Virus record (IMG/VR): IMGVR_UViG_3300014205_000181
Location: 80,549 to 144,548 of that record
Length of the DNA: 64,000 nt
DNA from: a virus
Taxonomy: Duplodnaviria > Caudoviricetes
Direction: 5' to 3' (one strand)
Both the position numbers and the translations under genes were made by a program. The notes under the pieces are model-generated. The model was given only the letters and a program-made list of their open reading frames with translations, did no database searches and had not been told where the DNA came from. Below, one piece after another: positions 203-60,589 of the stretch (its first letter is position 1; each line of letters begins with the position of its first letter).

Positions 203-230
203 TTATCGGCATAATGTATGCAATACTTTA
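203..230 (-). promoter_or_regulatory. sigma28/FliA(SigD)-type promoter
   Basis: TAAA-N16-GCCGATAA, directly upstream of the SD and ATG of the HTH gene. Confidence 0.75.
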
Positions 231-271
231 ACATTATTTTGCTTGTACTGCAATTTAATTTATTAAACGTA

Positions 272-874
272 TTAATTAATCACCTTTACTTGTCCATTTT
301 CAACCCTAAATAACCGATCCCCTTCAATATCAATTTGATCAGTCACAATTAAAAACTGAATACCCATTCTTGTACTAATCTCTTTTAATGTGTCGGAAAT
401 CCTTTGCTGATATTCTGAAGAATTTAATGCACTAAACGGCTCATCTAAAATCATCAGTTTTCGTGTTTTTCTTTCTAATACAAGGAATGCTAGGCGGCAA
501 CCGATACTTATGATATTCGCCAATCCTCCGCCGCTTGAACCAAATATACTAGCTTCATTCCCATCTTTCAGGATAAATGCCTCACATTCGGTGCCGCCTC
601 TTTTCTGAACGAAGCGAAGGCAAAATCTCCTGTCGTCTTGCCAAATATTTTGAATAAGCGGCGTAATTAAATTTTCAAAATAGCCAATCATATGTTGTTG
701 TGTTTTCTCGGCAACCGACTGAATTACAGCTCTTGCTTCGAGAGAATCGGTTGAAAAAATCTTAATCGCTTCTAATTCTTTTACCTTAGTATCTAATTGA
801 GAACTAAGTACTTTCTTTTCGGCTTTAATTGAATTAACTTTATCTCTAAAATTTAGGAGTTCTTGTTTATTCAC
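272..874 (-). CDS. sbcC: SbcC/Rad50 (gp46-like) C-terminal half
   Basis: Signature-like SSGGG and Walker B MILDEPF, no Walker A; likely GTG start at 874 (the ORF track extends to 937). Confidence 0.8.
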   Translation of the reverse strand: MNKQELLNFRDKVNSIKAEKKVLSSQLDTKVKELEAIKIFSTDSLEARAVIQSVAEKTQQHMIGYFENLITPLIQNIWQDDRRFCLRFVQKRGGTECEAFILKDGNEASIFGSSGGGLANIISIGCRLAFLVLERKTRKLMILDEPFSALNSSEYQQRISDTLKEISTRMGIQFLIVTDQIDIEGDRLFRVENGQVKVIN

Positions 875-1415
875 TCTTATCACCGTCAAAAGTAATAACG
901 GAGAAAACCATCGGGCTATGATATAGGTCAATATCATATTTGTAGGCTGTCTTGAATCCTAAGTAAAATCCGAACCCCAACCAAAAAGACAATCCAGCTA
1001 CAATTAATATAATCTTTGTTCCGCCCCATAATGAAAGGAAGAAAAATTTTGTAGATTCTTTAATTTTATTCATTATTTTGTCCCAATAATCTGGCTATTA
1101 ATTCTTTATCTCTCAATCTCATTAATAGTGCTATATGAAGAAGGTAAAAGATAGAAAGCACAAAATGTCCATAGTATGTAAAAGCACACAATACCACAAA
1201 ATCAAACGATTGATCTAATAACTGAGGTACTAACTTGGCGCCCCTTTTAAAATGCTCTATTAGTACTTTATCAATTGAGAATGCCCATGCAGTAATTGCA
1301 GTTGACCATCCCATAAACAATGCTATATTTTTAAACCCTTCAATCTCATTGACGAATCCAAGGAAGATACAAATGGCAAATATTCCATTTGACAACAGCC
1401 ATTTTAAATAATGCA

Positions 1416-1670
1416 TTAATCGTCTCCCCAAGAATACTCATTTTTCAATTTTGTGTACTTAGTTTCAATCTGTTCTTTATAATCTCGTAACATTTTCTCG
1501 TTATCTTGGATCATTTTCTTGGCGTCATTGGTATTCTTAACCCCAAGATTAACACCCTGCTTGGTTAACAAATCCATTTGAGCCTGTGCAGTGTTCAGTT
1601 CCTTTTCGGCCTGAATTATCTCGCTTTCTAATTCGTTTAAATCATCGTAGATTTCATTAACTGTTGGCAT
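1416..1670 (-). CDS. small coiled-coil protein
   Basis: Heptad-rich 84 aa ORF between sbcD and the sbcC C-half. Confidence 0.5.
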   Translation of the reverse strand: MPTVNEIYDDLNELESEIIQAEKELNTAQAQMDLLTKQGVNLGVKNTNDAKKMIQDNEKMLRDYKEQIETKYTKLKNEYSWGDD

Positions 1671-2013
1671 TCTCTTTCTCCTGTAATTTGTTTTTCTTTT
1701 TTAATATAATAGATTCTATTTCATCATACATATTATAATTACATACAGTTACATTCAGGTTTGTCCACATTTTAACTGCCGAGTTATAGTGCTCCACAGT
1801 TTCACAAGATTCTATAACCATAATTAATTTTACTAACGCTCTATACGGCTTATCCATTTGGCAACTCCTCATCGTCGATATGTCCAAAATTACCAAATTC
1901 GTCTATTGGCTCTAGGAGACACCCGCAACTAGCACAGTACGAATAAGGTTCTGCTAGGGTTTCTAAACCACAATTGTAATTAGTACAAGAACAGGAGCAA
2001 CAATTTAATTGAT

Positions 2014-2217
2014 TCATTTCTTATTGGCCTTTGGTTTATTCCCCATATAATCGTTGGCTTCTGAATAGCCGTGTATTACAAAATTCGCGAAAGTCGGAAT
2101 TCTAACGGCAGTCGATCCGCAATTAGTACATTCTATTTCTTTTATATCTTTAAACATTAATTTATCTAGTATCTCAAATTTACAATGTTTACACTTATAG
2201 GAGTATATTGGACTCAT
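2014..2217 (-). CDS. FmdB-like zinc-ribbon protein
   Basis: PIYSYKCKHC...CTNCGS pattern. Confidence 0.7.
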   Translation of the reverse strand: MSPIYSYKCKHCKFEILDKLMFKDIKEIECTNCGSTAVRIPTFANFVIHGYSEANDYMGNKPKANKK

Positions 2218-2408
2218 TCATACACCTTTATCAGTTTGTTTGTAATCGCCCCATCCATGAATGTTTCAAGAATTTCAATTGCATTCTCAACTTTATCAAT
2301 ATCTTTTTGTTCTAGTAACAAATCTTCTGGACCTATTGTACCATTAAACAGATCATAATACAAGTCATTTGTGACAATTATATTCGCTTCTTTATCAAAC
2401 TGCATTTA

Positions 2409-3326
2409 TTATTTTACCTCCAATGTAGATTTAATAATATCTTGAACAGATTGTCTTATTTCATTTTTAAGTATAAAATTATTAAGATTATCAACAAAGC
2501 TAAATTCCTTTGCTCCTGAATCAGCACTTAAAATATCTATGTACTCTTTAATTTGTTCTGAAGTTTCTTTTTTATCTTTATTTTTTAGGACTTCTTCGAG
2601 GTTGAACGAAATTGAAGAGTGTTCACAAGGTATTTCAAATAACTCATAGGTTTTAGTATCTGTATCAAATACAGCAATTTTAGGGATGTAATCTATTTGG
2701 GATATATTCAATCTAGTTAGAGACCCCATATTCAATAACGTTTTGCCATTATACTCGTGAACGAAGTATTTATGATTGTCCGCACTTAGAATTACGTCAA
2801 ACTTGTTCTTAGACAATAATACACGAGCTGTAATATGTCCAGTCTGTCCGCACCAAATTTTTTCGTCTTCGTCCCGAATAACCATTTTATGAATTACCAA
2901 GATATTAAATTTATTTTTATCTATAATCTCAGGGATTGTATCTCCCCAATGGCACCCATAAATATCCACATTTTCATAAGAAGAAGGGATTGCCTCTAAC
3001 AGTTTAATTACGTCTGCTGATTCTACCACCTTTATAGGTGTATTAACTAAACTCCTATCTAAATGTCTTTGATCATGGTTCCCACTTACAGCTAAAATAT
3101 TTAATTTTGATTTTTTGAATAAATTAATGGTGTCACTGATAAGCCAGTTGCTTGCCCTGACAGAATCAAACAAATCTCCTGCTTGTAACATTAAGTCACA
3201 TTTTTTTTCTACACCTAATTTTAAACACCATTCTAATTTCTTGAATTGGGTTTCTCTATAATTATCGATTCTAAATCTACTTCCAGAATCGCGCAGATGG
3301 ATATCAGAGATCATCAATATTTTCAT
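2409..3326 (-). CDS. sbcD: SbcD/Mre11 (gp47-like) metallophosphoesterase nuclease
   Basis: SDIH, GDLFD, GNHD and ADNH motifs. Confidence 0.9.
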   Translation of the reverse strand: MKILMISDIHLRDSGSRFRIDNYRETQFKKLEWCLKLGVEKKCDLMLQAGDLFDSVRASNWLISDTINLFKKSKLNILAVSGNHDQRHLDRSLVNTPIKVVESADVIKLLEAIPSSYENVDIYGCHWGDTIPEIIDKNKFNILVIHKMVIRDEDEKIWCGQTGHITARVLLSKNKFDVILSADNHKYFVHEYNGKTLLNMGSLTRLNISQIDYIPKIAVFDTDTKTYELFEIPCEHSSISFNLEEVLKNKDKKETSEQIKEYIDILSADSGAKEFSFVDNLNNFILKNEIRQSVQDIIKSTLEVK

Positions 3327-4465: not shown

Positions 4466-4467
4466 AA

Positions 4468-5691: not shown

Positions 5692-5698
5692 ATTATTT

Positions 5699-8478: not shown

Positions 8479-8479
8479 T

Positions 8480-10623: not shown

Positions 10624-10633
10624 CAAATTTAAA

Positions 10634-16801: not shown

Positions 16802-19800
16802 TTAAATGAATCCTCCCGTTCTTTCTAAAACATCCACGAATTTTTTAATCCCATCCTTGAATGGTTTCTTAAAGTCTTCCGATTTCCACGATACCCAGCC
16901 AGGAGGGATCACGTATACAACCCAACAACTATTTTCTTCATTCCATTCACAAGTACCATTTTTACGGATTATACCCTTGTTCTCCTCACCAAAATATCCT
17001 AGCCCTGTGTTCCCAATACTAAGCACGAATCTGATATTTTCAAGTTCTTTCTTAAGATATCTTGAACCACATTCTTTGATCACTTTTATATCAGGCTTCT
17101 TACATGGACACTTAACAAATGACGTTCTGTGAAAGAATTCTTTTTCAAAACCGTACTTATTTAGCTCATTCCATAGGATATCGCCATCTCTGGATTCTAA
17201 GTATTTATTACTTTTAACTTCATCATAATTAGGAGCCTCGGTTATGATTGCTACGTTATACTGTCCCGCGCTCTGTTGTATTGGATGCTCATTGCTTTTA
17301 CACTTTACTCTTTGTGAGCAAGAAATGCAAGCTATTAATTCTGGATGGTTAATTATTTTTTCGTCTTCTTTTAATTCTCTTCCGTAGTGATGTCCAATGA
17401 GATCAGCAGATAAGTAATTGTTTATATCTATTACTTCTTTATCACCTATTAGCGCATACAGGTTCTTGTATTTGTATTTATAGTTTAGAGTTATTCCCAA
17501 ATCAAGGAAATAACTGTCTATTGTTTCTGGCAATTCGTCTTGTTCTGAACCAAAAGCTCCAATTTCCTGGAGAATTTTCAAAAGTTTATCTTTTAAGACG
17601 GGTTTTTCTTTCTTAAAAAATCCAGGTACTTGAGAATCTTGGTATTGTTTAATTGTTTCTAAGATTTTCGGGCCGAGTCCTTTACATTCTGAGAAAGGTA
17701 TTTCCAACCTTCCCTTTCTAGCTACCCAGTTATAAACATGACTGGTCTCTAGTTTTGGGGTCTGGATTTTTAAACCAAGGCGTTGTGCTTCGGTAATTAA
17801 ATCATGTTTTTCAGCGTCACCACCATATGTCAATGATGCACAAATAAAACAATCACTATAGTATAACTTTAGCCAAATAGTCCAATAAGCAATAATGCTG
17901 TAACAGATAGAATGTGATAGGTTAAACGAATAGTCCGCATGGTGTCCTAAATCATCCCAGAATCTTTCCGCCTCTTCTTCGCTAAATGTTTTTTGTTCTA
18001 AACATCCAGAAATAAATTTATCCTTAAATTTCTCTAGTAGTGTTACATCTTTCTTCTTGGCTACAATCCTTCTTACTTCATCTGCTTCCGCTAGAGAAAA
18101 GCCAGCTATTTTATGAATCGTTTGAATTACTTGTTCTTGATAAAATATAACCCCGAATGTCTTTTGACATATTTCTTCATAAATTGGATGTTTTGGCTCC
18201 CACTTTTCCCCATTCTTTCTAGCGATATATGTATCTGTTGCCCCTGAATCTTGCGCTCCCGGCCTTACTCCGGCCACGACATCAGATAATTGAAAGATAT
18301 CTTTTGGTTTCATCCTCTTCAAAAGCTGCTTAAGAGAGAATGTGTTAATCTGAAATCCACCTACCGTATTGGCATTAGAAATTTCTTCATATACTTTTTT
18401 ATCATCAAGCGGAATTTTCTCAAGGATGATATCTTTGCCATGATTTTGCTTAATTAAATCGATTGTCATAGCAAGAATACTCATTGCGTTAAGCCCCAAA
18501 ATATCTAGCTTGACAAGCCCTTGTGCCTCACAATCGTTACCATCAAGACATGCTACTAACTGTCCATTACGTTCTGCTAGAGCCGTCCTAGTACCAAGAC
18601 GTAGGTCTACGGGGCTAATTAGAGAAGCTGCTGCGTGACGGCCATAACTTTTGCATAAACCGGCCAACCTAGCAATGTGAATAGATGCCTCTGGGTACTT
18701 AGCTTTAAACTCTACCCCTTCTGCTGATTGAAAAGCAATTTCAATATTATCGGTTACAGATTTAGAAAATACATCTGCTTCTTTTAATGGAATTTCAAAT
18801 GTCCTGCAAACATCTCTAATCGCACCTTTCGCCTCTATCTTCAAGTATGTAGAAATTCCACAAACATGGCCTTCCCCGTAAACATTTTTTAAATAATTTA
18901 CTACTTGATCTCTTTTGTGGTGTTCGAAATCCAGATCGCAATCGGGCATGGCTCCTCGTCTTCCGGGGTTTAAAAACCGTTCGAACAAAAGTCCGAATAC
19001 GATTGGGTCTACTTTAGTTATCCCCAACAGATAACTTATCAAGCAACCCGCTGCACTGCCACGGCCTGGGCCAGTTAAGATACCGGAATCATTACAAAAA
19101 TTGACCAAATCATAAATTATTAAAAAGTATTTTATTACTCCAAAATCTTTAATAACAGATAATTCATACTCAAATCTTTCTCTATACTCTTCAGTTACTA
19201 CGTCTAGTTTATTTTTAAACCCTTCTTCGCATAGATCTCTTAATACCGTTTCTTCATCCATTCCCTTAAATTGTGGAGGTGTTGGAAGAATAATTTCTTT
19301 CTTATCTATCCTAAAACTTCCACATTTTTCTGCAATTTCTAATGTGTTATTAAATGCTTGTTTAATTTCTTCTGGATACAAAACCCCCTGATTGACAAAT
19401 TGTTCATATAACTCTTCTGGAGTAGATAAAAAGAAATCAGAACCAGAAAATTTCCAGCGTGTTAAATCGCTCTTTAACTTTTTCGTCTGCATAGCCAGAA
19501 GAGTATCGTGAATGTCAGAATCTTCTTTATTTATGTAATGAGCATCGCTAGATACGATAGTTTTAATTCCATATTTTTCTGAAAGATCCAAACATAAATT
19601 ATTTGTAAGTATCTGTTTCTCATCTGAAAATGGCATCAACTCTAAGTATAAATCGTCACCTATTTTTTTATATAATTTTTCTAAAAATGGAATGGAATCT
19701 TGTTGGTGTAGCCAAGACGCTGAACATGCCGTGCTAATACAAAGGCCCGCACAATTATCCAGCAACATATCAAAACCTATCCTACCCATATAATAGAAAT

Positions 19801-29065: not shown

Positions 29066-29455
29066 TTAGTTATTCCTTTTTTCTAATGTATAACTATTAA
29101 ATTCATTACTGAACACAACGTTCTTTATTCCTGAAAAACTAATTGCAGCGGAGCAAATAGGGCACGGTTTCGCATTGGCTATCTTACCGTTCCTCAATAA
29201 CCTGACAACAATAAGAGAATGTATTTTACCTCTAGATTTCAAAATCGCAGAGAGTTCGGCATGAAGCTTAATTTGGTCTTTATGCCCATGTTTGTTAGCC
29301 AATTTGGACATAGCTGTATGCGTCTTAGAACTGTTCTGGCCGGTAGATAATACAGTACCGTGCTTATCAATTGCGATAGCGCCTAGTCTGAATTTTTGAT
29401 TATTCTTGGACGCTATTTCAATAGCCATATCTATGTAACGTTTGAATTTTTTCAT
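29066..29455 (-). CDS. cytidine/dCMP deaminase-like zinc protein
   Basis: HAE...PCPIC motif. Confidence 0.85.
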   Translation of the reverse strand: MKKFKRYIDMAIEIASKNNQKFRLGAIAIDKHGTVLSTGQNSSKTHTAMSKLANKHGHKDQIKLHAELSAILKSRGKIHSLIVVRLLRNGKIANAKPCPICSAAISFSGIKNVVFSNEFNSYTLEKRNN

Positions 29456-29461: not shown

Positions 29462-29490
29462 ATTGTACTAAATCGTGCTTATTTTGTCAA
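29462..29490 (-). promoter_or_regulatory. sigma70-type promoter
   Basis: TTGACA-N17-TACAAT just upstream of the deaminase ATG. Confidence 0.75.
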
Positions 29491-32314: not shown

Positions 32315-32368
32315 TTATTCCTCATCGTTATTGTTACCTAGCCATTCGCTGTCTAGGAAGGCTAGGTT
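32315..32368 (-). pseudogene. relic helicase extreme C-terminus (divergent allele)
   Basis: Translates NLAFLDSEWLGNNNDEE*, against the intact helicase end QPFLDSEFMGHSYEED*. Confidence 0.75.
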
Positions 32369-32380
32369 TACAAATAATAT

Positions 32381-32408
32381 TAAAGTTTTTATACTATTAT
32401 TCCGATAA
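32381..32408 (+). promoter_or_regulatory. sigma28-type promoter for tnpB
   Basis: TAAA-N16-TCCGATAA followed by GGTA, as in the three other copies. Confidence 0.65.
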
Positions 32409-32449
32409 GGTATTTATAGAAACGATTCATTCTCTGCAAAAGGATTAAC

Positions 32450-33538
32450 ATGATCAAGTCATTCAAATATAGAATATATCCCAACAAAAGTCAAGAGGAA
32501 ATGTTTAATAAGCATTTTGGTTGCGCTAGATTTATTTATAATTGGGGCCTCAATCGCAAAGTTAAAGAATATGAAGTATCAAAAAAGACCTTGTCTTTCT
32601 TTGATTTAACAAAAGAAACAACCTCTTTAAAATCTGAAAATATATGGTTAAAAGAAGTCAATTCCCAATCGCTTCAAATGTCTCTAAGAAATCTTGATAA
32701 CGCATTTACTCGCTTCTTTAGAGAAAAGAAAGGGTTCCCTAAATTTAAATCTAAAAGAAACAACCAATCTTTCCAATGTCCACAGGCATGTTCAATTAAT
32801 TTTGAAACAAATAAATTAAATATCCCCAAAATTAAAAACATTAAAATAAAAATTGACAGATCGTTTGAAGGTAAAATTAAAACCGTCACAATTAGTAAAG
32901 TTCCTTCTGGTAAATACTATGCCTCAGTTTTAGTTGATGATAGAAAAGAATTACCATCAAAGATTAAAGCAGTTAAAGAGTTCTCTATTGGCGTTGACTT
33001 AGGGATCAAAACTTTCGCAACCTTATCAAATGGAGAAAAGATTGATAATCCACGACATTTTAAGAAATTAGAAAAACAATTAAAGCGAGCACAAAGGAAA
33101 CTATCACGCAAAAAGAAAGGTTCTTCTAATCGAGACAAAACAAGAATTAAAGTTACCATTTTACATGAAAGAGTTACTAATTCACGAAAAGATTTCTTGC
33201 ATAAATTATCTAAAAGACTGATTGACGAAAACCAAGCAGTTTGTCTTGAAAATTTAAATGTCAATGGACTTCTCAAGAATCGCAGGTTAGCAAAACACAT
33301 CCAAGATGCAGGATGGAGAACATTTAAAACATTCTGTGAATACAAGGCAGAATGGTCCGGTAAAGAAGTTAAGACTATTGGACGGTTCGAACCGAGTTCT
33401 AAACTTTGCAATGTATGTGGAGTATTAAACAATTCACTCACCTTAAAAGATCGAGAATGGACCTGTTCTTGTGGAACCATTCATGATCGTGACATTTTAG
33501 CCGCCAACAATATTCTAAATTTCGCATTTCTACCCTAG
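32450..33538 (+). CDS. tnpB: RNA-guided endonuclease TnpB
   Basis: N-terminal KYRIYP..HFGCARFIYN; RuvC GVDLG, CLENL, DRDI.AA.NI; zinc finger C..CG..C.C. Confidence 0.95.
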   Translation: MIKSFKYRIYPNKSQEEMFNKHFGCARFIYNWGLNRKVKEYEVSKKTLSFFDLTKETTSLKSENIWLKEVNSQSLQMSLRNLDNAFTRFFREKKGFPKFKSKRNNQSFQCPQACSINFETNKLNIPKIKNIKIKIDRSFEGKIKTVTISKVPSGKYYASVLVDDRKELPSKIKAVKEFSIGVDLGIKTFATLSNGEKIDNPRHFKKLEKQLKRAQRKLSRKKKGSSNRDKTRIKVTILHERVTNSRKDFLHKLSKRLIDENQAVCLENLNVNGLLKNRRLAKHIQDAGWRTFKTFCEYKAEWSGKEVKTIGRFEPSSKLCNVCGVLNNSLTLKDREWTCSCGTIHDRDILAANNILNFAFLP

Positions 33539-33649
33539 GGTCTAGGGGGAGTTAAGCCTGTGGAGATTGTGTAAGACCTTTAGGCAACGATCTTGGAAGC
33601 AGGAAGTCTTATTGTTTAAGATAGATCATGAAGGCTTGTCCTAGGTTAA
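33539..33649 (+). ncRNA. predicted omega/reRNA 3' portion plus guide (33630-33649)
   Basis: IS605-like right-end motifs ending at TCAT (33626-33629); guide inferred from the established TnpB architecture. Confidence 0.6.
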
Positions 33650-33674
33650 TCGTATTAGTCAAAATTAAACATCC
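33630..33674 (-). pseudogene. relic helicase penultimate segment (divergent allele)
   Basis: Translates GCLILTNTINLGQAF, against the intact NQILITQNLALAQPF. Confidence 0.6.
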
Positions 33675-33676
33675 AA

Positions 33677-33724
33677 TCAAGTTTGCCCAATATACTCACT
33701 TAAATCTCTTGGTTTTCTCGGCAT
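33677..33724 (-). pseudogene. stub of a homing endonuclease N-terminus
   Basis: MPRKPRDLSEYIGQT* resembles the start of IG..FGRLT-type HNH ORFs. Confidence 0.4.
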
Positions 33725-33727
33725 AAA

Positions 33728-35263
33728 TTAATCCTCCTCATATGAATGTCCCATAAACTCACTATCGAGGAACGGTTGCGCCAGTGCAAGATTTTGAGTA
33801 ATTAAAATTTGATTATTCGGGTCACAGTCTCCCTCTCTATTGTATGCGACAGAAGCTCTTAATAATCCGTTCTTTTTCTCAGTAGGAGTGCTCTGCAAAA
33901 CGATCAAAGAATCGAGGTGGGCTAGTTTGGTGAAGGCTTCGGCTATTTGCAGACCGCTAATATTTTTCATACCTGCTCCCGTTCGGTTCGTCTGTGACGC
34001 AGTTAAAACTAAAATATTCCTTTCTGTGGCGATTCTGGAAAGGCTCTTCCAAATCTCATCAAGCTGAAATCTCACGTCATTTCCAGTATTTACAGAACGC
34101 AACACATCCGCGTAATCTACGATCAAAACGTCAGGATAAAAACCACTACTATATGCTAAATTATCTAAATCTGCCTCAATTTCAGCAACACCGACCCCGA
34201 ACTTTGGATAACATTTTAATCGATACCTGTCATTTCCGTACATTAGCCCAAAACCTCGGCTCATATTAATTGCTTTATCGACGGTCAATTCTTCTTTAAA
34301 TTGCGAAAAAAACCAATTGGCCGTTTGGTAATCTGAAGTTCCACGACAAGCAGTACAAACAACATAATCCTTCGGGGCATTTGAAAATTCTGGAATCTCT
34401 CCAACAGAATTAACGAGTGGAATTTTACTGGCTCTAATACTTTTAGAACATATCCCTAACTGATTTTTTTTACAATCAAAGCAACTAATTTCATATTCTT
34501 TTGATTCATCGCCTTGTCCAGTAATCATTTTAAGATCACGGTAATTAATCTTAGTGGCGGACATTTCTAGGTTCGTCTCAAAAACGCGTAGCCTGTTCAT
34601 TCGAGCAACCAAGCCCAAAAAGTGCAGCATCCAGGTCTTGCCGCACTTTGGTGGTGCCATGATCGCAATCAACCTCCCTTTTTCCGGCTTAATTAAAGTA
34701 CCTAATGGACCAGGAATGGTAAATAATATATCTTCTACTTTTGCCTTAAACGTCTCCTTGATAAAATCAGCATCATGAGGATTTACGCAACCAGAAGTCA
34801 ATTCCGTTACTTTTCTATGATTCCTAATTTGTTTTTCTACTTCTTCTATTTGGTCAAGTTTAGCATAACTTGAGATATTATCAGCTAATTTGATATACGA
34901 TTGTTTCTTAAGATATGGTATAGCTTGTTCAATGAAATATTTACTATTCCTTTTTTCTCCTTCTTCAATGAACTTATTCGATAGATTTTCAAGTAGGTCT
35001 TGTATAATCTCTGCATCTTCTGCTTGCAATTTACCTTTTTTAGTATTAAAAATATCCTGAATATATTTACCAGGGCTTGACTTATAATTATTATAATACT
35101 CTTGAATCCAAAGGAATATTTTGCGGATATGAGGGGTATCAAAATATTCTGGTTTGGCAATGGGTAGAATTGCTTTACAAAAATCATCATCGATTATGAG
35201 ATTGATTGCTATATTTTTTTCTGATTCTTGGTCGATCTTACGTCCACTAATTGAAATTGCCAT
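33728..35263 (-). CDS. DnaB-like replicative helicase
   Basis: Walker A APPKCGKT, LEM, VDYAD, TASQTNR; Cys-rich insertion. Confidence 0.9.
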   Translation of the reverse strand: MAISISGRKIDQESEKNIAINLIIDDDFCKAILPIAKPEYFDTPHIRKIFLWIQEYYNNYKSSPGKYIQDIFNTKKGKLQAEDAEIIQDLLENLSNKFIEEGEKRNSKYFIEQAIPYLKKQSYIKLADNISSYAKLDQIEEVEKQIRNHRKVTELTSGCVNPHDADFIKETFKAKVEDILFTIPGPLGTLIKPEKGRLIAIMAPPKCGKTWMLHFLGLVARMNRLRVFETNLEMSATKINYRDLKMITGQGDESKEYEISCFDCKKNQLGICSKSIRASKIPLVNSVGEIPEFSNAPKDYVVCTACRGTSDYQTANWFFSQFKEELTVDKAINMSRGFGLMYGNDRYRLKCYPKFGVGVAEIEADLDNLAYSSGFYPDVLIVDYADVLRSVNTGNDVRFQLDEIWKSLSRIATERNILVLTASQTNRTGAGMKNISGLQIAEAFTKLAHLDSLIVLQSTPTEKKNGLLRASVAYNREGDCDPNNQILITQNLALAQPFLDSEFMGHSYEED

Positions 35264-35336: not shown

Positions 35337-35561
35337 CTAATCACAAATCACAATACTCCTAGTTTTCCTATAATAATTTAGCGTTACATACCCATTATTC
35401 TCTAATGAACTAATTGCTTTGCTTACCGTTACTGGATTTTTATCAATTATTTTCCCTATCTCAACATTATTTTTACTGGATTTTTTGCCAGATAGAATTA
35501 AGTTGTAAAGGATTCTCTTCGCCGTTGGGCTTAAATTGTTATCATTCATGTAATCTTTCAA
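35337..35561 (-). CDS. winged-HTH protein
   Basis: LSPTAKRIL...EIG.II......VSKAISSLE..GY. Confidence 0.75.
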   Translation of the reverse strand: MKDYMNDNNLSPTAKRILYNLILSGKKSSKNNVEIGKIIDKNPVTVSKAISSLENNGYVTLNYYRKTRSIVICD

Positions 35562-35581
35562 ATAATTAACCTCCTAGTACC

Positions 35582-35608
35582 TTATCGGCATTCTTTGCAT
35601 AAACTTTA
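35582..35608 (-). promoter_or_regulatory. sigma28-type promoter
   Basis: TAAA-N15-GCCGATAA, then AGGAGG SD. Confidence 0.75.
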
Positions 35609-38600
35609 ATTATTTTATCTATCTTTAGTTAAAAATATTAAAAGTCTTTATTTCCTATTCTTATTATGTGGGCAAATGACGCAGTATCTTGTATCACATC
35701 CCTTATTCCGAAATTCTAAAACACATTCTACCTTGATTTTCATTTATAACCTCCTGTTTTAATTTCCATAATCCACAGCGACTATTTTACCTTTGTACTT
35801 ACCAAACGAATCCAATTTAGGTTCTGCCGGAATTGTGTAATCTTCTCGTAGTAACCAATTCTCGGCATCCATTTCAAAGAATTCTTCTCTTGTTAAAGGT
35901 TCGCATCTAGGCATTACCACTAGAAATCCAAATGGAATATAAAATAAAACTGGGCAAAGTTCTGGTTGGTTAATTTTACTGAATTGAACTTCTTGCATAT
36001 TAGCTAAAAGCCCCAATAAGAACAAGCGGAATTCATACATAATACTTGGGATTTTAAACGCATATTTTCCTATTAGAAATACTACCCTTGTTGTTCCATA
36101 GGCTATTCTACAATTTTTATGAATTATTGACATATTCATTTGTCCATAATCTTAGGGCACCAATTGGGCTTGACTAGAGTATCAGAAACACTCCCAATTG
36201 AATACGCATTATCATCCGACATGCAATAATTCTTATGGTCATTTTCTGTATCTTGGGATAAACGCTCACAGCCACCGCAATCTTTCTCCAACCCCTTTGC
36301 CAATTTAACAATATTAGATACTAGGTAATTAATTCTAGCATGAAAATTGACATTATGTAGATAATACTCTTTTGCTTTATGAGGGATAATATTTATAGAT
36401 TCAGCAGTGCAAGTATTGACATTGATCGGATTCTCTTTTTCGTATTCAGTAAAAATCAATAGTTCTAGAAGTTTTTCTTCAAATTTATGGTAATTCATTT
36501 TATTTCTTTAGCCCCAAATCAATATAGTTCTCGACTTCTTGATTAACCAATTGATTTTTACAATAATTAATACAGCCGCTAGGTGGAACTAGTTCCCCGC
36601 CATCGACCCAACATTCGTCGGTGATTAAATCAAAAATCATGGAATTGACAAGCGGCAATTGCCCATAGGCATCTATCAAACCAGAGTTATGACAATTAAA
36701 AGAAATATTTAAATGATTTCCAGCTAGCATTGATAGTGGTCGTTGATCATCCAATTGAATATATTTACATATTAAGCATTTGTGGTAATTCATATTATTT
36801 TTACCTCTCCGCGAATGGTACTAAATATTTATTAAAATATTGTTCTGTTATTTGAGTGCATATTTTACCAGTATTGTATGATTCCATAAACCACAAATCC
36901 CCAGTATACTTACCGCAATATCCCATTGACACAGTATAAAGTTTACCATCCTTGATATTTCTATAAATTGTCATTTCTTTACCTTCTTATTCTCCTACTA
37001 TTTCCTCAATAATTACACCAAAACCCTTACAATGAGGGCATTCTTTTAGCGGTTCATTAATCATTGTAATCAATTCAGAAAGATATTTGTCTATATTATT
37101 CTTTAAATCTTGATGGTCTTTACCTTCAAACCCTGGAAGAACAGTATACTTTCCGTATCTATCCTTATCGCTAGTCATATCAAATACTTCTATTTCTCTG
37201 TCCTTAATGAACTTCTCCTTATATTTCCTATTTTTATAAGAAGTCCCGTTATCTTTCTTAATCTCTATTTTATTATGTATGATATCATTAAGAGGAACGA
37301 CCTTCTTTACAGTAAAACAAAAATCATAATCAGAAGTGACCCTTGCATATTTACCATTAATGTTTTGTTTGACATATTCTCTTACGATTTCATAGCTTTC
37401 TTTGCTTGATAAATTACAGGGTTGATTAGGAAGAGCAATAGACGGGAATACAATTTTGTCTAGTAATTGGTGCTGAATGTTTTCAATTCTAAAATTATTG
37501 TAATTTTCTAAGTTTTTAATATCTGGAATCTCTAAAATAGTTTTATAAGTAAATTCGATTTGTTCTTCTGCATCGGGTTGTTCATCTGACAATTCTTCAT
37601 AGAATCCTTGAAGGTGTTTAAATTCAGATTTCCATTCACAGTAATCGTTATTCTGCTCCATTACCTCACTCTTTGGGAGGATTTTAGGGAGACTAGAAAT
37701 ATCTATGAATTCTAAATCACTTTTGAGTTCATACCTGTGATTTATTCTTGGTTGTTTAACCAGTTTATATAATGTAATTGGCTCTTCTTTTACGAATACC
37801 CAATTTTTATGGAACGTCGTTTCTGGACGTTCCCCATTAATGAAATAAGAATTTAATGCATTATTGTAATACGTTGAATCCCCATTAGGGTCACTTGAAA
37901 TATAATAACCATTATTTGTTTTAACGCCAGTAATAATTAACATTTGTTCCCCTTATTGCACCATTTATTCACAAACGCTGCGTCATCAGTACTCAACATA
38001 ACATAATTTTCACAATCAATCTCACACGCCTTAATAAGATTTCTAGCATCTTGAATCGATGTTTCATACCAGTATTTCCACGGTTTAGTCAACCAGAAAT
38101 CAGGCTCGGTTCCATAGATCTTGGCATAAATAGCAGCTTCTTTAAAAGTCATTTTCTGCTTCTTTAAAAATACTCTTGAAAAGAATCCCGGTTGTTTTAG
38201 CATATAATATTTAACTGTTTTCTTAAATTCATCTCCTCTCTTCTTCATAAAAGCATGAATATAACTTGAACAAGCACTGTATATTAGGTCTTTTCTTACT
38301 TTCAATTGCGTCATCACTCCTCTCCCGTCTCAACGCTCATTGTTTCTTTATTACATGCAGGGCAAAGATAAACATCTCCGTTCGCAACTGACCTGCTATA
38401 TGCCACGAAAACATCAAAATCTTCATATCCACAATGCTGACAATAAATCCATTCTACTTTCATTTATTTGCCTTCAATGTCAAACAATCCATTTATAATA
38501 CTCTCCCCATATCCAGCACCAAGCAATAATGGGCTAATAATTTCTTCCCATAATTCTTGGATATTCAAATTGCCCTTTGGAATCTCAATACTAACAATGC

Positions 38601-43981: not shown

Positions 43982-43983
43982 AA

Positions 43984-47020: not shown

Positions 47021-48145
47021 TTATCCCTCAAATAATCCCTGATCGTTACACCATTTCGCAAAATTATCCAAGCTATAATCACTGCACAAATTTCCTGGGC
47101 AAATTTTCGAAACTTCTTCATTTTTACTCTTAAAGATAAATTCAAGGAAATATTGTGCTCTTTTCCCCTTTGACGCCATTGTACCGCTATACAACTCACC
47201 AGCGCACCACGAAGAAAATTTCTTTTTATTTTCTTTATAAAAAGCGTTTAACTTCTTCGTAGCAATCCTGAATTTATTCTCTTCAACAGTATCGAATTTA
47301 ATTTTTTGAATATCCTCAATACCGTTTATCTTTTCTTTTTTGGTTATGCGCAAATATTCTTTCTTCAACTGAATGGTAACTTCTGGATCTTCATCATCCA
47401 TCAAATACCCAGACACTTTAGCTAAATCTGGCTTCTTATCCAAATACTCTAAAAAGTATGATCGTTCTTCTGAACCATAAGAGTTATGTAGAAAACTAGG
47501 CAATCCCGTTTTTTGCAGCGCCTTCTTATACCCATTGAGTGGCATATAATTATAATTAAGAGCAGCTAAAGCGAAATTGTCAATACTTGTTTTTATTTCT
47601 TCTACAGTAAAAACTCTATCTGCATATTCACCAAATTTTCCATTTTTATCAAAGAAAGAAGCACTCAATAATTTCTTCAACATTTTTACTGCTTCTTTGT
47701 AGGTATTCGTATTTGGAAATTTATGGTGAACAATTTTTTTTGAATTCCAGTATTCAATCAATTCCAGTATATGGGCTGGTACTTTTGGCAATGGTTTAGG
47801 TGCTGGAGGTTTTTGTTTTAATGTTCTTTGAATTTGTTTTGGAATTGTAGGGATTGATTCAACTGGTTTGTGTTTTGGAGTTCCTTTAGGTGTGCGTTGT
47901 GGAATTCCTTTGGGAGTTCGTGTTGGCTTAATTTTAACTTGTTCTTCTAAATATTTGTTATACGAATTATCGTTAACAATAGAAAGACATTTTAAATCAT
48001 AATTGTCCCCGTCAATCCTATAACCTAAAGACAAACACCAGTTGGGGGTATTTGGTAGCTTAGATTTCAGAATTTTTACACTTCCAATTGGCAGTTCGCC
48101 TTGATCAAAATTGATTAGAATTGGAACTTCAATAAATTCGCTCAT
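47021..48145 (-). CDS. hypothetical protein with Pro/Lys-rich linker
   Basis: 374 aa ORF; RTPKG repeats. Confidence 0.6.
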   Translation of the reverse strand: MSEFIEVPILINFDQGELPIGSVKILKSKLPNTPNWCLSLGYRIDGDNYDLKCLSIVNDNSYNKYLEEQVKIKPTRTPKGIPQRTPKGTPKHKPVESIPTIPKQIQRTLKQKPPAPKPLPKVPAHILELIEYWNSKKIVHHKFPNTNTYKEAVKMLKKLLSASFFDKNGKFGEYADRVFTVEEIKTSIDNFALAALNYNYMPLNGYKKALQKTGLPSFLHNSYGSEERSYFLEYLDKKPDLAKVSGYLMDDEDPEVTIQLKKEYLRITKKEKINGIEDIQKIKFDTVEENKFRIATKKLNAFYKENKKKFSSWCAGELYSGTMASKGKRAQYFLEFIFKSKNEEVSKICPGNLCSDYSLDNFAKWCNDQGLFEG

Positions 48146-51328: not shown

Positions 51329-51799
51329 AGGAGCTAGTTTATTTCGTTATGCAGCCTTCGCATGTGTCTTTCCTAACTTCTTGGCTTTCATGGGCTTAAT
51401 CTTACTGATACTGTTAGAAATATCAGCGAAGAACCCATTCTTACTTACCTGAGATACTACCCTTTTCTCAATAGCTGCCTTGATCGGGGTTTCAAAGACC
51501 AATTCCTTCATGGAATCAAATGAAACGTGCTGGCCCTTGTTGTTTTCCAGATCATAAGCCCTTTTGCCCTTACCGACTAAACGACTTGATGCTGTATACG
51601 GGATTTTGAGAAATTCAAAAACCTGATTCAGCCTTCCGGTAGTCAACCGGAAATTCTTGGAAACCCTCTCTTCTTGAATCTGATGAATGGTTTTTTCAAC
51701 TACGGTTAGATTTGCCATGATTTTCCTCCTACCTGTTTCGGTTTAATTTTAACTACTCGTTTTAATTGCTAGCTCCTGTTTTAAACTTCTCTTGACTAA

Positions 51800-51828
51800 A
51801 GGATACTAAATGTTAGTTCTTTTGTCAA
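51800..51828 (-). promoter_or_regulatory. sigma70-type promoter
   Basis: TTGACA-N17-TATCCT. Confidence 0.55.
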
Positions 51829-52938
51829 GGATTATTTTGTTTCTCTAATTTTCCGAGCTTTTCGTACTCTGTTCTAAGATTACATAATTCCTCTTCAAGG
51901 TAATCTATAATCTCCTCCATTAGACTCATTTTACAGATGATACAAAGACATGGCTTCGATGACAGAGGTGTCCCTCTGTCATCCTTATAAAGTATTTTAA
52001 CTTCATTATTTCCGCACTCTAGGCATTCCATTATTTCACCTATTTCTTAATCGTAGAGTCAATCAGAAAATAGCGTATACTGCTACTCTCTATTATTCCA
52101 GTTTCTAGGCTTTTATATTTAATGTATCCATTTTTAATATCAAGAACTTCATTTTCAACTGGACATGGATTCTTAAATGGGTCATCTACACACGAATCAT
52201 AAATCCACACTTGCCCTGCCGTAATTTTTTGTGTAGTAGATGACACTGCTATATAAACAACTACGATACTCGTGATGATAATTCCTGAAAACAAAAATAT
52301 GCCCAGAAATACTTCAGAATACCGATTAATCTTTGCCATAATCATTCCTATTCCTATTAAAATGAGCAAGGCATCAGGTAAGTGTGATCCTGACCGCCTT
52401 GGATTATCTGGGTTCCCCTGTACTTGTCGGCCAACCTTTTCAGATAATTGGATGCACGGCATTTCTGCGCCCGTGCTCAAAACCAAGCTACCCTTTCTTA
52501 GAGAAAGACAACCGAATAGAATAAGGCTTTGCCTTCAATGGACGAAGAGTCTTAACTAATTCAGCACCTAAAATTTCCGCTGCATCTTTTACGGACACTT
52601 TTACAGTATCAAAAAAACGATCCGCTTTACCGATTTTATCCATTTCCTTAAATACTTTTTCTGGATCAGCGTCTTCTCTGGATTCACAGCTTACAAATTT
52701 AAGATAAGAATTAAGGCCCGGAATGGTTTCGGTTGCCCCGGCTTGCAATTCTGTTACGGAATGTCCGGTTTCAATGTATTTATTAATCTGCTCCTTTAAG
52801 GGCTTAAGTTTCTTTTCCGCTTCCTTGATAGTTGAATCAAGAACTTCGGCTTCGTCAATTAAAGATTGAATATTTATGGCGTCTGCTTTCTTTCGTGTGA
52901 TTTTCATTTTGGTCTCCTTTTAAATTCCTCTTAAATAT

Positions 52939-52967
52939 ATCTTACGAACTTAATCCCAAATTGTCAA
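52939..52967 (-). promoter_or_regulatory. sigma70-type promoter
   Basis: TTGACA-N17-TAAGAT. Confidence 0.6.
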
Positions 52968-54770: not shown

Positions 54771-55116
54771 TTTTCAATTCCTTTATTCTCATATCCGTCC
54801 AATAGCAAACATTTTCTCCAAAACACCCTTGCCAATACGCTTTATGTTTCGCCCATGCTAATCGCAAAGACCAACAGGAAGTATCTCTACTTGAACTAAA
54901 TCGTTTCCGGTAATCGTATTTCATTTGGACTCCTTTGTATGTCCACAAAATGAACATTCCCACCAATTGGTATAATACCCGTCAACGGAATCGGATTGTT
55001 CAAAATCCATCTTTCTAAAATGACATATAGGAGAACTTTCATGGATTTTATTAGCCATTTCTATATTTACTTGATTCATTCCGTCCATAATTTTGAACAT
55101 TTCATTGTCGTTCATT

Positions 55117-56154: not shown

Positions 56155-56222
56155 GAAGCTCGATGGGAATTGAACCCACATTAACCAATATAACTTGCCT
56201 AGGTCTCAAGCTCACGAGCTTC
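56155..56222 (-). ncRNA. minimal tRNA-like element
   Basis: GAAGCTCG/CGAGCTTC stem plus T-arm GTGGG-TTCAATT-CCCAT; no canonical D or anticodon arm. Confidence 0.5.
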
Positions 56223-56235
56223 ATTTGTTAGAGAT

Positions 56236-56264
56236 AGATTACAAAGTATTGAGGGATTAGTCAA
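56236..56264 (-). promoter_or_regulatory. sigma70-type promoter upstream of the tRNA-like element
   Basis: TTGACT-N17-TAATCT; spacer similar to the 59161-59189 promoter. Confidence 0.55.
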
Positions 56265-56294
56265 GGAGAAATACGATAAGGGAATAAATGGAAT

Positions 56295-57659: not shown

Positions 57660-59160
57660 TTACGCCCTAACCCGTTCGGCTGTACCAACATATTCCATTT
57701 CTTCCCACTTCGCCCTGTAGTAAGCTTGAGCACCCCATTCTTTGGGGTCAGTAATAACCATGATACAAGCGGCAAACATTTTATTAGCAACTAATTCAGG
57801 ATTGAGTTGGACAAGATCCCCGATTTCTAAATTTCTCTTTTCCATTTTATTCCTCTTAAAATATTAATTTAGCTGAAATTAACAATGCCCAGCCTAAAGC
57901 GAACATAAATGATTGGGCACTTGAGATATTTTTCTTAAAAATAAAACCACCAATTACTGGCACAGAATACATAATCCCTATAAGTAATCCCATGCTTGCG
58001 ATAATATTATTCAACATTACTTCCCCTTACTCCTAATAAATTCTTTCCCTTCTTTAAGAGCGTCAATAAATGACTGAATATGCTCTTCTCCGCCAAAATA
58101 AATACACCCTTCTGTTTCAAGAGTATTATTAAACAAAATCTTGTAAATAGCAACGAATTTATTCTTCCAAGTTTCAAGAAAATTAAACCGATGCGGGTAA
58201 AATCCTACTGTTTTGTAGAAAGTGAGAGTCGGTAAAAAATCAGAAATTTCAAAATCAGCCCATATATCACACTCAGGGCTTTGGCAATCACAAGCAATTC
58301 TAAATGTAATTGACGGATCTTTACCATTATGTTCAGATGTTTTCATTACACGGTAAGATGTTTTCATTATTATTCACTCTATCTCTTGGATAGTAATTTT
58401 ATATTTTTTACCGACTTTCAATCTATAAGCGCAAAACATCCCATCATCGCTGAAAATGCCAATTCCATCGGTCCATGCCCCTATTTCTGGAGAATCTTTC
58501 TTGACCTTCTTTGCTTCTGAAATAAAAACAAATTCTTCTTTCATTTTATTCGTCCTCTAAATGGCAGTCTTTATCAATGGCCAAAGCCTCTACCGACCTA
58601 TCTAAATGATTGCAATAAAATTTATATGTTTCACAGTCGAAAAGACTACCATCAATCTTCTCGGAAAACGGACACTCTCTACAGCAATCCACATGTATAA
58701 TCGCTATTTTCATATTTTCCCCTTAAAAATATCGCCAAAGATATCTCCTAAATCGTTCTTAGGTATTTTTGTTTTATTCATCATGTCAGAAGCCAAGCGT
58801 TTTCGGTTGCAATTTTCACATAGGCATACAATTCCAATTTTTAATTTGCTACCAGTTGCAATTTCCCCTAGATATAATCCACAGACACAGTATATTTTCT
58901 TAGACATGATTTGTATCCTCACCCTTTGGCGACTTCCTTACAAGCCGACTAAATTGCACAAAGAAAACAGCCTTACAATGGGAACATCTTGGAACTTTTA
59001 ATACAAAATTTCAAATTATTCGATCCGCAAAATGGGCAAAATTCTACTAAGGGTTCTTTTAATTGTGACATTTTACTCTTCCTCGATAGACTCTTCTGAT
59101 TCAATAGATTCTTCTGACTCAATACTCTCAAGTTGCTTATATAATTTTTGTTTAGTGAGC

Positions 59161-59189
59161 ACATTACAAAGTATTGTGATATTTGTCAA
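59161..59189 (-). promoter_or_regulatory. sigma70-type promoter
   Basis: TTGACA-N17-TAATGT. Confidence 0.55.
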
Positions 59190-59199
59190 GGGTAAATGT

Positions 59200-60339
59200 T
59201 TATAATATTAATTCTATTTGTTTATCTTGGTAAGTACACACAGTATAGGCTAACGCACCAGTCGAACAACCACCTTTATGCAACGCATCATATAGACCCG
59301 AAGAAACTATAATGCAGTTCTCTGGATCTAAAGCCAGACCCGGCTCTAGTTTCTTCGGGTCTATATGATGCGCTATGAGGTCATCATTAGGATGCGTTGA
59401 ATCGATAGTACAGAAGTTATAACCATATTCCTCTCGTTGACGTTTTAAGTTCTCTTCTCTCCATATTGAAAGTTCGTGTGGTGTTGGTTGATTTAGATTT
59501 TGCCTTGTGTTTGGGTCAGATCGTAATTTATATAAAATACACGAATGCTTACAATCATCTGAACAATATAAATTGTGTTCTGTTCCCAAAGAATACCTCC
59601 AAGGGTTTTCTATTGTACTAATCCTACTCCACAATTGGTAACTAGTTGGAGGGAACCACTTCTCACACTTCTTGCACCTTACATCAATTCCAAGTTCTCC
59701 ATTTATCCTGTCTCGAATCTCTTCTATTTGACAAAATAAGGGGTATTTGTCTTGATAATCTTTGACTTGCAGAGTAAATCTTTCTTTTGCTTTTTCGGAA
59801 GAGTAACATCCGCAAGAAGTCGTCGCCCCAGTTCTTAAACTACCTAATTCGTATCTTCCAATATTCCCATCACAAGAGCACTGAGCTATTACTTGTCGCG
59901 AATTATTAGCCCCTCTCTCAACTTCACCTAATACGGTCAGTCTCCCATATATTTCCCCTATTACATCCTCTCTTTCTCTTTCCACTTCTTTTTTAAAACA
60001 ACCACAGGATTTAGATTTTCCACTATTTAGATCATACAACCTAACATTCTTTACCGTTTTCTCAATGCAGTCGCATTGACATAATATTGTTCTATCTTTT
60101 CCCCTTGCTACCTCTAGCTCTCTGATCACCACCCATCTACCAAACTTGTCTCCTGGATTTATCTCGATTTTCCTAATTTTGATATTATTCTTATTGAGAA
60201 TATTCCTTATCGTTAAGGGGTGTATTCCAAACATTTTCCCTAATACAGGAGATTTGATATTTTCTTCTGTATATAATCTACATACTTCAATAATCTGTTC
60301 ATCGGTTAGTTTTCTTTTACCCATTAATACCTCCTTCAA
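59200..60339 (-). CDS. HNH homing endonuclease, paralog of 3323..4465, with N-terminal HTH
   Basis: Two SCGC modules; shared FC.IEEI.D...WF.PT..QLW.RI..YCSD.CK..C.LY; AHHIDPKK. Confidence 0.8.
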   Translation of the reverse strand: MKEVLMGKRKLTDEQIIEVCRLYTEENIKSPVLGKMFGIHPLTIRNILNKNNIKIRKIEINPGDKFGRWVVIRELEVARGKDRTILCQCDCIEKTVKNVRLYDLNSGKSKSCGCFKKEVEREREDVIGEIYGRLTVLGEVERGANNSRQVIAQCSCDGNIGRYELGSLRTGATTSCGCYSSEKAKERFTLQVKDYQDKYPLFCQIEEIRDRINGELGIDVRCKKCEKWFPPTSYQLWSRISTIENPWRYSLGTEHNLYCSDDCKHSCILYKLRSDPNTRQNLNQPTPHELSIWREENLKRQREEYGYNFCTIDSTHPNDDLIAHHIDPKKLEPGLALDPENCIIVSSGLYDALHKGGCSTGALAYTVCTYQDKQIELIL

Positions 60340-60542
60340 AGGAGAGTGATAGTCCTCTTAGTACTTCCTCCATTTTCAATTACAATTACACCCTGTTGCC
60401 TCAATAATCCAATACACCTCGAAACAGAAACCTCATGGACACCAAGCTCTTGAGCAATTTTATAATTACTAATTTTAATCTGATTGTTTGAATCTAAATT
60501 CTCTTTGATGAAACGTAAAACCATTTTTGTGATTGGTGTCAT
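60336..60542 (-). CDS. winged-HTH protein
   Basis: ISNYKIAQELGVHEVSVSRCIGLL.QQG.I. Confidence 0.8.
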   Translation of the reverse strand: MTPITKMVLRFIKENLDSNNQIKISNYKIAQELGVHEVSVSRCIGLLRQQGVIVIENGGSTKRTITLL

Positions 60543-60561
60543 ATTTCCTCCTTAATATACC

Positions 60562-60589
60562 TTATCGGCATAACGAGTGTAAAACTTTA
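60562..60589 (-). promoter_or_regulatory. sigma28-type promoter
   Basis: TAAA-N16-GCCGATAA, then AAGGAGG SD. Confidence 0.75.

Follow-up and report, generated by a model that had tools for sequence, protein, structure and literature searches.

Which factor reads a two-box, promoter-like element that recurs along the genome of an uncultured tailed phage? The element was noticed in a stretch of 64,000 nucleotides (nt) from a virus of the Caudoviricetes (IMG/VR record IMGVR_UViG_3300014205_000181, positions 80,549 to 144,548), called here the window. The window is the last 64 kb of the phage contig C1 (144,548 bp, 35% G+C), which is the longest contig of a 3.7-Mb bin of 301 contigs. The preliminary description had listed four such elements in the window as promoters of the sigma-28 (FliA) type, three before small helix-turn-helix (HTH) genes and one before tnpB. 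It had proposed that the phage either reads the motility state of its host or uses a FliA-like sigma factor of its own, to switch on a dispersed set of regulators and nucleases. The answer favoured here is that the sigma-28 of the host probably reads these elements, as the middle/late promoter class of C1. Positions preceded by C1: are those of the contig; positions without a prefix are those of the window.

The pattern TAAAGT-N13-15-CCGATAAGGTA has exactly four matches in the window: 199-230 (-), 32381-32412 (+), 35578-35608 (-) and 60558-60589 (-). All four are exact copies of TTAAAGT-N13-15-CCGATAAGGTA. In 100 dinucleotide-preserving shuffles of the window, the mean number of matches was 0.00 and the maximum 0. 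They are the sites listed earlier, whose coordinates differed by the absence of the trailing GGTA, and they are intergenic and correctly oriented as had been stated, each pointing to the next gene. The sites and the genes behind them are given below (aa, amino acids; E, E value; PWM, score on a position weight matrix).

199-230, minus strand: promoter copy 1; TTAAAGTAT, 12-nt spacer, GCCGATAAGGTA; PWM 36.3.
1-183, minus strand: 61-aa HTH_3 (XRE-type) gene behind copy 1; HTH_3, E 1.4e-5; stop codon just beyond the window.
C1:79699-80367, just outside the window: 222-aa HNH-family protein, downstream of the 61-aa HTH gene; weak match to PHROG 374, E 4.4e-6.
32337-32366, plus strand: left-end hairpin of the TnpB element, CCTAGCC...GGCTAGG, then TTTAC; read from the sequence.
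32381-32412, plus strand: promoter copy 2; TTAAAGTTT, 12-nt spacer, TCCGATAAGGTA; PWM 35.8.
32450-33538, plus strand: tnpB, 362 aa; OrfB_IS605, E 3.8e-29; Cas12f1-like_TNB, E 1.6e-19; HTH_OrfB_IS605, E 5.8e-19.
35578-35608, minus strand: promoter copy 3; TTAAAGTTT, 11-nt spacer, GCCGATAAGGTA; PWM 36.1.
35337-35561, minus strand: 74-aa winged-helix-like gene (TTG start) behind copy 3; Fe_dep_repress, E 5.4e-4, and HTH_Crp_2, E 8e-3, both weak and below the curated cut-offs.
33728-35263, minus strand: DnaB-like replicative helicase, 511 aa, after the 74-aa gene in the copy-3 unit; DnaB_C, E 3.1e-7; DnaB, E 1.3e-4.
60558-60589, minus strand: promoter copy 4; TTAAAGTTT, 12-nt spacer, GCCGATAAGGTA; PWM 38.7, the highest.
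60336-60542, minus strand: 68-aa winged-helix HTH gene (HTH_Crp_2/MarR-like) behind copy 4; HTH_Crp_2, E 1.7e-6.
59200-60339, minus strand: 379-aa homing-endonuclease-family protein after the 68-aa gene in the copy-4 unit; PHROG 374 'HNH endonuclease', E 6.9e-25.

The three minus-strand copies do precede small HTH genes, at 8-12 nt from a ribosome-binding site of the AGGAGG type and 19-20 nt from the start codon. Two of these genes are followed, as had been noted, by a helicase or an HNH gene: the 74-aa gene by the DnaB-like helicase, the 68-aa gene by the PHROG 374 protein. The PHROG 374 match of the latter, 379-aa protein spans its repeat/DNA-binding part. A homolog of the 68-aa gene in the related contig G001 (51% identity) likewise lies behind a copy of the motif, and a paralogous version of copy 1 is found at C1:3404-3431. 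The gene behind the plus-strand copy is tnpB, as announced; it is intact, has three matched domains and is the sole clear plus-strand gene in its part of the window. Copy 2 lies between the left-end hairpin and tnpB, hence inside the predicted TnpB element (32337-33727). This is a solo element without tnpA, and no tnpB homolog was found in the relatives G001 or G002, or in the host bin. The mobile TnpB element seems to have adopted the promoter class of the phage.

A consensus was built from 26 sites in C1, G001 and G002. It comprises an A-rich tract and TTAAAGTTT-N11/12-GCCGATAAG. In the -35 box, TTAAAG is present in 26 of the 26 sites and the next three positions are T in 24-25 of them. In the -10 box, CCGATAAG (CCGATAA) is present in 26 of 26, with a leading G in 18. 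Eight sites have an 11-nt spacer and 18 a 12-nt spacer. Both octamers agree with the published sigma-28/FliA consensus, TAAAGTTT-n11-GCCGATAA (PMC2859248), and copy 3 (35578-35608) is identical to it, n11 spacing included. The element is real, oriented and bipartite, and its earlier assignment to the sigma-28/FliA type is borne out by the fit of the octamers. FliA sites of Escherichia coli also show an 11-nt spacer; the natural ones are mostly less perfect than the phage copies, and 30 of 52 are intragenic, some of these driving the downstream gene (PMC4183435).

C1 is a siphophage genome. Its virion genes lie on the plus strand at ~25-70 kb: those for the small and the large terminase, the portal, the major capsid protein, the tape measure and a lambda-J-like tail tip, and one for a fusion of a prohead protease with an AAA ATPase. 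In the minus-strand arms are genes for a DnaE-type polymerase, a primase, a DnaB-like helicase, a ribonucleotide reductase and a dUTPase, together with many HNH and GIY-YIG endonucleases and four tRNAs. A search of Rfam over the entire contig gave four tRNAs and nothing else. Genes from both ends of C1 adjoin, in matching order, in G002; C1 is therefore considered to be nearly complete and arbitrarily opened, with little of the genome missing. No close relative was found among GenBank phages (megablast), and the DnaE-type polymerase is only 34% identical to its Streptomyces phage counterparts. The capsid protein had no match in the genome_contigs collection. Among 301 genomes of the order of the bin it had one distant match, 33% identical, in a member of the same family whose genome has no cluster of the promoter motif.

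A scan of the whole genome, suggested earlier as a check, gives a set of 14 sites on C1, including the four of the window. The strict pattern is matched 13 times in the 144.5 kb of C1, against once in the rest of the bin (3.57 Mb); a relaxed scan adds the fourteenth C1 site, C1:76206. On the position weight matrix the 14 sites range from 26.8 to 38.7, and no site elsewhere in the bin exceeds 23.7. Thirteen of the 14 point to a gene. The sites lie as follows.

Before five small HTH genes, three of which are XRE-type, each of these three being followed by an HNH-family nuclease gene.
C1:25284: before a unit composed of a 68-aa gene, the small-terminase gene and the terminase gene.
C1:35071: 0.9 kb upstream of the major capsid gene, intragenic.
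C1:48043 and C1:55834: in a tail-side run of glycosyltransferase and sugar-epimerase-like genes.
C1:76206: before the dUTPase gene.
Single sites: before tnpB; before an 81-aa gene; before a gene located where the two divergent arms meet.
C1:12335: followed by 650 nt without any open reading frame (ORF).

The dispersed switch proposed for regulators and nucleases is thus retained in part. HTH, nuclease and TnpB genes are served by the motif, and so are the terminase, capsid and dUTPase genes and the glycan island. The motif would be a main middle/late promoter class rather than a switch reserved for regulators and nucleases.

Several regions next to these sites have features of their own. Three cassettes composed of a promoter copy, an XRE-type HTH gene and an HNH-family nuclease gene are found at C1:2519-3445, 18184-19235 and 79699-80792, the last reaching into the window (1-244). 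Two of the three share 76% identity over 250 nt. The nuclease at C1:2519-3199 (cassette C1:2519-3384) has a clear Pfam HNH domain (1.1e-13) and that at C1:18417-19235 has a strong PHROG 374 match (2.9e-54); that at C1:79699-80367 has a weak match only. The cassettes look like duplicated or homing units. The glycan island (C1:48077-57600, plus strand; L011:8077-17600) comprises ~10 glycosyltransferase and sugar-epimerase-like genes between the head-tail and tail genes, with a leaderless promoter copy of its own and another within one of the glycosyltransferase genes. The promoter serving the capsid gene is embedded in an 882-aa ORF (C1:32904-35552, plus strand; L010:12904-15552), which combines a prohead-protease/scaffold-like N-terminal part and an AAA-type ATPase part; the promoter lies in the latter. 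G001 matches only the first ~260 residues of this ORF, and a promoter copy is still found there ~0.35 kb upstream of the capsid gene. The ORF-less stretch behind C1:12335 (C1:12335-12770, plus strand; L009:12335-12770) runs antisense towards an AAA-ATPase gene. The stretch gives no ground for claiming a structured RNA (folding energy no better than that of shuffled sequences, z = -0.15, no Rfam match, no conservation in relatives). It could give an antisense or non-coding RNA, or be a decayed gene.

Conservation of the sites was analysed in the relatives. G001 and G002 share 87 of the 255 C1 proteins, at ~30-80% identity. The IMG/VR relatives (these two and three more contigs) carry 2-7 motif copies each and zero matches to reversed-pattern controls. 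In G001 the copies occupy syntenic places: upstream of the small terminase and capsid genes, at the tail/glycan junction, within the same glycosyltransferase gene, and upstream of an HTH-helicase unit, which is arranged with its promoter as in C1. The two intragenic copies, C1:35071 and C1:55834, are translated as L-K-F-x4-A-D-K(V), the only stop-free frame with a 12-nt spacer. TTA AAG TTT and GCC GAT AAG are invariant codons in the orthologous copies that were compared; the four spacer residues and the flanking synonymous positions vary. Invariant codons amid drifting spacers and flanks imply that selection at these two sites acts on the DNA, not on the protein.

The geometry of a gene start points the same way. 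In the first glycosyltransferase gene after C1:48043, 7 nt separate the ATG from the preceding CCGATAA in C1 and G003, against 9 nt in G001; the N-termini of this protein align between C1 and G003. At the E. coli aer promoter, sigma-28 transcription starts 6 bp past the octamer (PMC2859248). A start 6-7 nt past the box at C1:48043 would give a leaderless or nearly leaderless mRNA, and the position of this gene start fits a sigma-28 start point. The 7-nt distance leaves no room for a sigma-70 -10 hexamer. Site conservation, frozen codons and gene-start geometry all argue, at the level of sequence, that the motif does function as a promoter.

A second promoter class is present on the phage. Sigma-70-like promoters had been mentioned elsewhere in the window, and three intergenic sites of the form TTGACA-N17-TAnAAT are indeed found there.

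29462-29490, minus strand: sigma-70-like promoter, TTGACA, 17 nt, TACAAT; the ATG of the dCMP-deaminase gene is 6 nt later.
29066-29455, minus strand: dCMP-deaminase gene; dCMP_cyt_deam_1, E 2.4e-12.
51800-51828, minus strand: sigma-70-like promoter before a 123-aa gene; sequence pattern.
52939-52967, minus strand: sigma-70-like promoter before a 139-aa gene; sequence pattern.

In the minus-strand arms of C1 this class, often with a TG extension, lies before groups of small genes without assigned function. The dCMP-deaminase mRNA would be leaderless, and in C1 both promoter classes seem to yield such mRNAs.

No sigma factor was recognised on the phage. Six-frame searches of C1 with hidden Markov models (HMMs; Pfam Sigma70_r2 and Sigma70_r4, NCBIfam FliA_WhiG and sigma70-ECF), at E cut-offs from 0.01 to 1, gave nothing except an HTH stretch at E 0.17; the same models gave 17-31 matches in the bin. 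A profile of 16 host sigma factors, compared by hhalign with all C1 proteins of at least 80 aa, gave no probability above 18%, a value reached for an HTH stretch of 28 residues. No sigma factor emerged when ~70 of the C1 proteins were scanned against PHROGs and Pfam. None was found in the five relatives, and phmmer with five sigma-like ORFs of other motif-bearing phages found nothing in C1. No member of the FlgM family was detected on C1, and an ESM Atlas look-up of a conserved 374-aa protein gave no usable lead. Two marginal matches were treated as noise, both being far below the cut-off: a 162-aa protein resembled the coactivator family of T4 gp33 (E 0.18), and the 68-aa protein encoded before the small terminase gene resembled FliS (E 0.0025). 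The FliA-like sigma proposed as one alternative thus finds no support in the HMM, hhalign and PHROGs/Pfam searches of C1 and the five relatives, and neither a sigma factor nor a FlgM-like anti-sigma factor is recognised on C1. C1 is also considered to encode no RNA polymerase, because every protein of more than 600 aa is assigned to another function.

With no sigma factor or RNA polymerase detected in the nearly complete C1 genome or in its relatives, the motif is most likely read by the flagellar sigma factor of the host. The sequences establish the motif, its number, orientation, conservation and geometry, and the lack of a recognisable phage sigma factor; we infer transcription from the sites, its temporal class and the role of host FliA as reader. 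RNA polymerase carrying a sigma factor of the sigma-28 family would recognise TTAAAGTTT as the -35 box and GCCGATAAG as the -10 box, with 11-12 nt between them, and would start transcription ~6-7 nt past the -10 octamer. The class would drive middle/late functions: the helicase unit, the dUTPase, the small terminase and terminase, the capsid and the tail-side glycan island. It would also drive the three HTH-plus-HNH nuclease cassettes and the resident TnpB element. The separate TTGACA-N17-TAnAAT promoters would drive blocks of small early-type genes. Virion production would be tied to cells with their flagellar programme on. That the phage reads host motility state remains the best reading, as an inference.

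The bin that contains C1 is a metagenome-assembled genome (MAG) of the Ignavibacteriales/Melioribacteraceae, its FlhA being 72-74% identical to that of such MAGs. It carries flagellar genes (flhB-flhA-flhF-flhG-fliA, flgG, flgK, flagellin). Its FliA/WhiG-type sigma factor (210 aa, C20:8591-9223) scores 148.7 bits, below the cut-off of 189.6 bits, and is encoded in the typical flhBAFG-fliA context. The bin has its own TAAA-N15/16-(A/C)CGATA(A/T) sites, located before the flagellin gene, a small gene beside flgK and a sensor-kinase gene, and a sigma-28-like site before a fliK-like gene; the kinase site, TAAAGTTT-N11-ACCGATAA, is kept in two genomes of the same genus. The flagellar promoters of the bin mostly read ACGATAA/T, and the phage copies are nearer the consensus. 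A host FliA recognising the consensus would be available if the bin is the host. Of the flagellation expected of the predicted host, the bin thus provides the genes, fliA included; the phage is tied to it by binning only.

The same consensus was searched for in unrelated phages. The bare 16-base form, TAAAGTTT-N11/12-GCCGATAA, matched at least 118 stretches of IMG/VR. Among the matches listed, many contigs (e.g. L192, L139, L182, L165, L206, L135, L161, L200) have no protein homology to C1, have 28-55% G+C and carry 3-10 oriented copies before genes; L192 carries 10 copies in 5 kb. Five unrelated records have 3-10 sites each and no reversed controls: G321 has 10, and the complete genomes G312 and G320 have 4 and 7. 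In several unrelated contigs the motif heads short genes in tight runs. These phages are like C1 in having the same boxes in several oriented copies before genes; they differ from it in sharing no proteins with it and in having the sites mostly before runs of small early-type genes. In L146, L170, L172, L190 and L197, a perfect TTGACA-N17-TATAAT is interleaved with a perfect TAAAGTTT...GCCGATAA, and these interleaved promoters may be under dual-sigma control. Unrelated phages converge on a sigma-28 consensus that is shared across phyla; a conserved cellular reader is therefore favoured over a DNA-binding protein specific to one lineage. Sigma-28 wiring may be widespread in uncultured phages. 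In a broader and more tentative form, the proposal is that a lineage of large siphophages and apparently several unrelated groups, all without a sigma factor or polymerase of their own, run their middle/late programme, with its virion genes, on host sigma-28, with progeny made only in motility-on cells.

Several points weigh against the reading by host sigma-28. The spacer found in 18 of the 26 copies is one nucleotide longer than that of the E. coli consensus. A 12-nt spacer may be tolerated by sigma-28. The invariant G, often GTA, that follows CCGATAA lies outside the known consensus and could mark a second factor. Weak sigma-like ORFs are carried by 4 of the 17 unrelated records tested, the others having none or marginal HTH-like matches; those in the records of L146, L170 and L197 are small (171-216 aa). 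Very divergent phage sigma factors, of the T4 gp55 or SPO1 gp34 kind, and adaptors that appropriate a sigma factor can escape HMMs. Dependence on a sigma factor restrained by FlgM would be risky for a lytic phage. The link to the host comes from binning alone: comparison of C1 with the rest of the bin gave only a 96-nt tRNA-like match (blastn), no protein was more than 44% identical (tblastn, C1 against the bin), and no clustered regularly interspaced short palindromic repeats (CRISPR) spacer linked C1 to the bin. The housekeeping promoters of the bin have the form TTGACA-N17-19-TAnnTTTG, i.e. a Bacteroidota-like -7 box and a canonical -35 box (tRNA upstream regions at C93:7844, C76:594 and C113:15). 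The true host may be another flagellated bacterium, because the sigma-70-like boxes of the phage end in TAnAAT and those of the bin in TAnnTTTG. This uncertainty leaves the mechanism unchanged, because recognition by sigma-28 is conserved across phyla.

The rival that survives best, unlikely as it is, attributes the reading of these sigma-28-like promoters to a divergent phage sigma factor or to an adaptor that retargets RNA polymerase; late transcription would then be independent of host motility. Phage late sigma factors such as T4 gp55 and SPO1 gp34 are hard to detect, and C1 encodes many conserved early proteins of unknown function (e.g. window 47021-48145, 51347-51718, 52488-52907). The sigma-like ORFs of the four unrelated motif-bearing contigs (24-39 bits) and the G/GTA extension common to the phage copies are in its favour. 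An exact FliA two-box specificity, however, is most simply that of a FliA homolog, and no FliA homolog is found in C1 or the five relatives at E<=1. The hhalign and phmmer results on C1 also argue against it, as do the two complete unrelated phage genomes, with their 4 and 7 sites and no clear sigma factor.

It is much less probable that interleaved sigma-70 hexamers are the real promoters, TTAAAG and GCCGATAAG being overlapping sites for an activator or repressor. Several copies can be read as TTGCAT/TTTACA-N17/18-TATATT or TTTATA-N17-TACAAT, and the perfect TTGACA-N17-TATAAT of the five interleaved contigs is consistent with this. On C1, however, the hexamers are weak and shift from copy to copy, whereas CCGATAAG is invariant. 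At the HTH genes, a start 7 nt past TATATT would lie within or beyond the conserved AAGGAGG, and the ribosome-binding site would be lost. At C1:48043, the ATG leaves no space for the hexamer.

The condition named earlier as a refutation, that the small HTH proteins encoded downstream bind the motif as their operator, in an autoregulatory loop, is very improbable. Five of the 14 copies are directly before a small HTH gene; the other nine have none behind them, and the HTH genes that do follow the motif belong to two unrelated types (XRE-like, winged helix). The motif has no dyad or direct-repeat symmetry, its two boxes being unrelated in either orientation. Its orientation strictly follows the downstream gene, and the same consensus is found in phages without homologous proteins. 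Finally, the copies might be mere common ends of duplicated mobile cassettes (homing-endonuclease units, insertion sequence) without regulatory role, as the 76-87% identity over 60-250 nt of the promoter and ribosome-binding regions of three HTH genes and the location of the TnpB copy inside its element, past the left-end hairpin, would suggest, but this has a negligible probability, the other ten copies being alike in the two boxes only, with different spacers, and the capsid, terminase and glycan sites being kept in relatives that have different cassettes.

How the early-to-late switch is made without a sigma factor or polymerase of the phage is unexplained for most uncultured phages. If the reading by host sigma-28 is correct, the switch is a host alternative sigma factor that reports motility, and phage yield is coupled to host behaviour. 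A flagellated host with fliA would then be a host trait predictable from sequence only. A phage with entry through a working flagellum would be well served by such wiring, which would also explain the presence of the same promoter on homing-endonuclease cassettes and on the TnpB element, the mobile elements being timed to the phage programme. The clustering of the same consensus in unrelated IMG/VR phages indicates that the wiring may be general.

One further gene of the window deserves mention. The 318-aa protein encoded at 36987-37943 (minus strand) matches Pfam Gad1 (Gabija anti-defence) over its full length, with E 1.3e-75. This Gad1-family protein is likely to be a counter-defence gene product of the phage.

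No paper on a phage-wide sigma-28 promoter class, or on such wiring of a lytic phage, was found in the full-text literature, a coverage that leaves out most subscription journals. Three known systems can be compared with C1. In SPO1 (gp28, gp33/34), T4 (gp55) and phiEco32 (gp36), phage-encoded sigma factors read the later promoter classes. The logic is alike: early genes depend on the primary sigma factor of the host and later genes on a second consensus. These phages carry the sigma gene, and their promoters are unlike any host alternative-sigma consensus; C1 yielded no sigma gene, and its consensus matches the one of a host sigma factor. Systems of the SPO1 and phiEco32 type are treated in PMC13401047 and PMC8948821. 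The class 3 flagellar promoters (E. coli/Salmonella FliA, Bacillus subtilis SigD, Streptomyces WhiG, Chlamydia sigma-28) resemble the C1 sites in their octamers; the gene-start geometry at C1:48043 would fit their mapped start, and intragenic copies are also found in E. coli. They differ in the genes served, the C1 sites heading virion, replication and nuclease genes instead of flagellar and chemotaxis genes, and in the 12-nt spacer of most phage copies and their extra G, often GTA. The E. coli genes flxA and ykfB are located in the Qin and CP4-6 cryptic prophages. Both genes (promoter of ykfB inside yafY) are FliA-dependent according to ChIP-seq (chromatin immunoprecipitation sequencing) and RNA-seq (PMC4183435). 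They are isolated accessory genes of defective prophages, whereas C1 has 14 promoters distributed over core lytic modules and conserved across its lineage.

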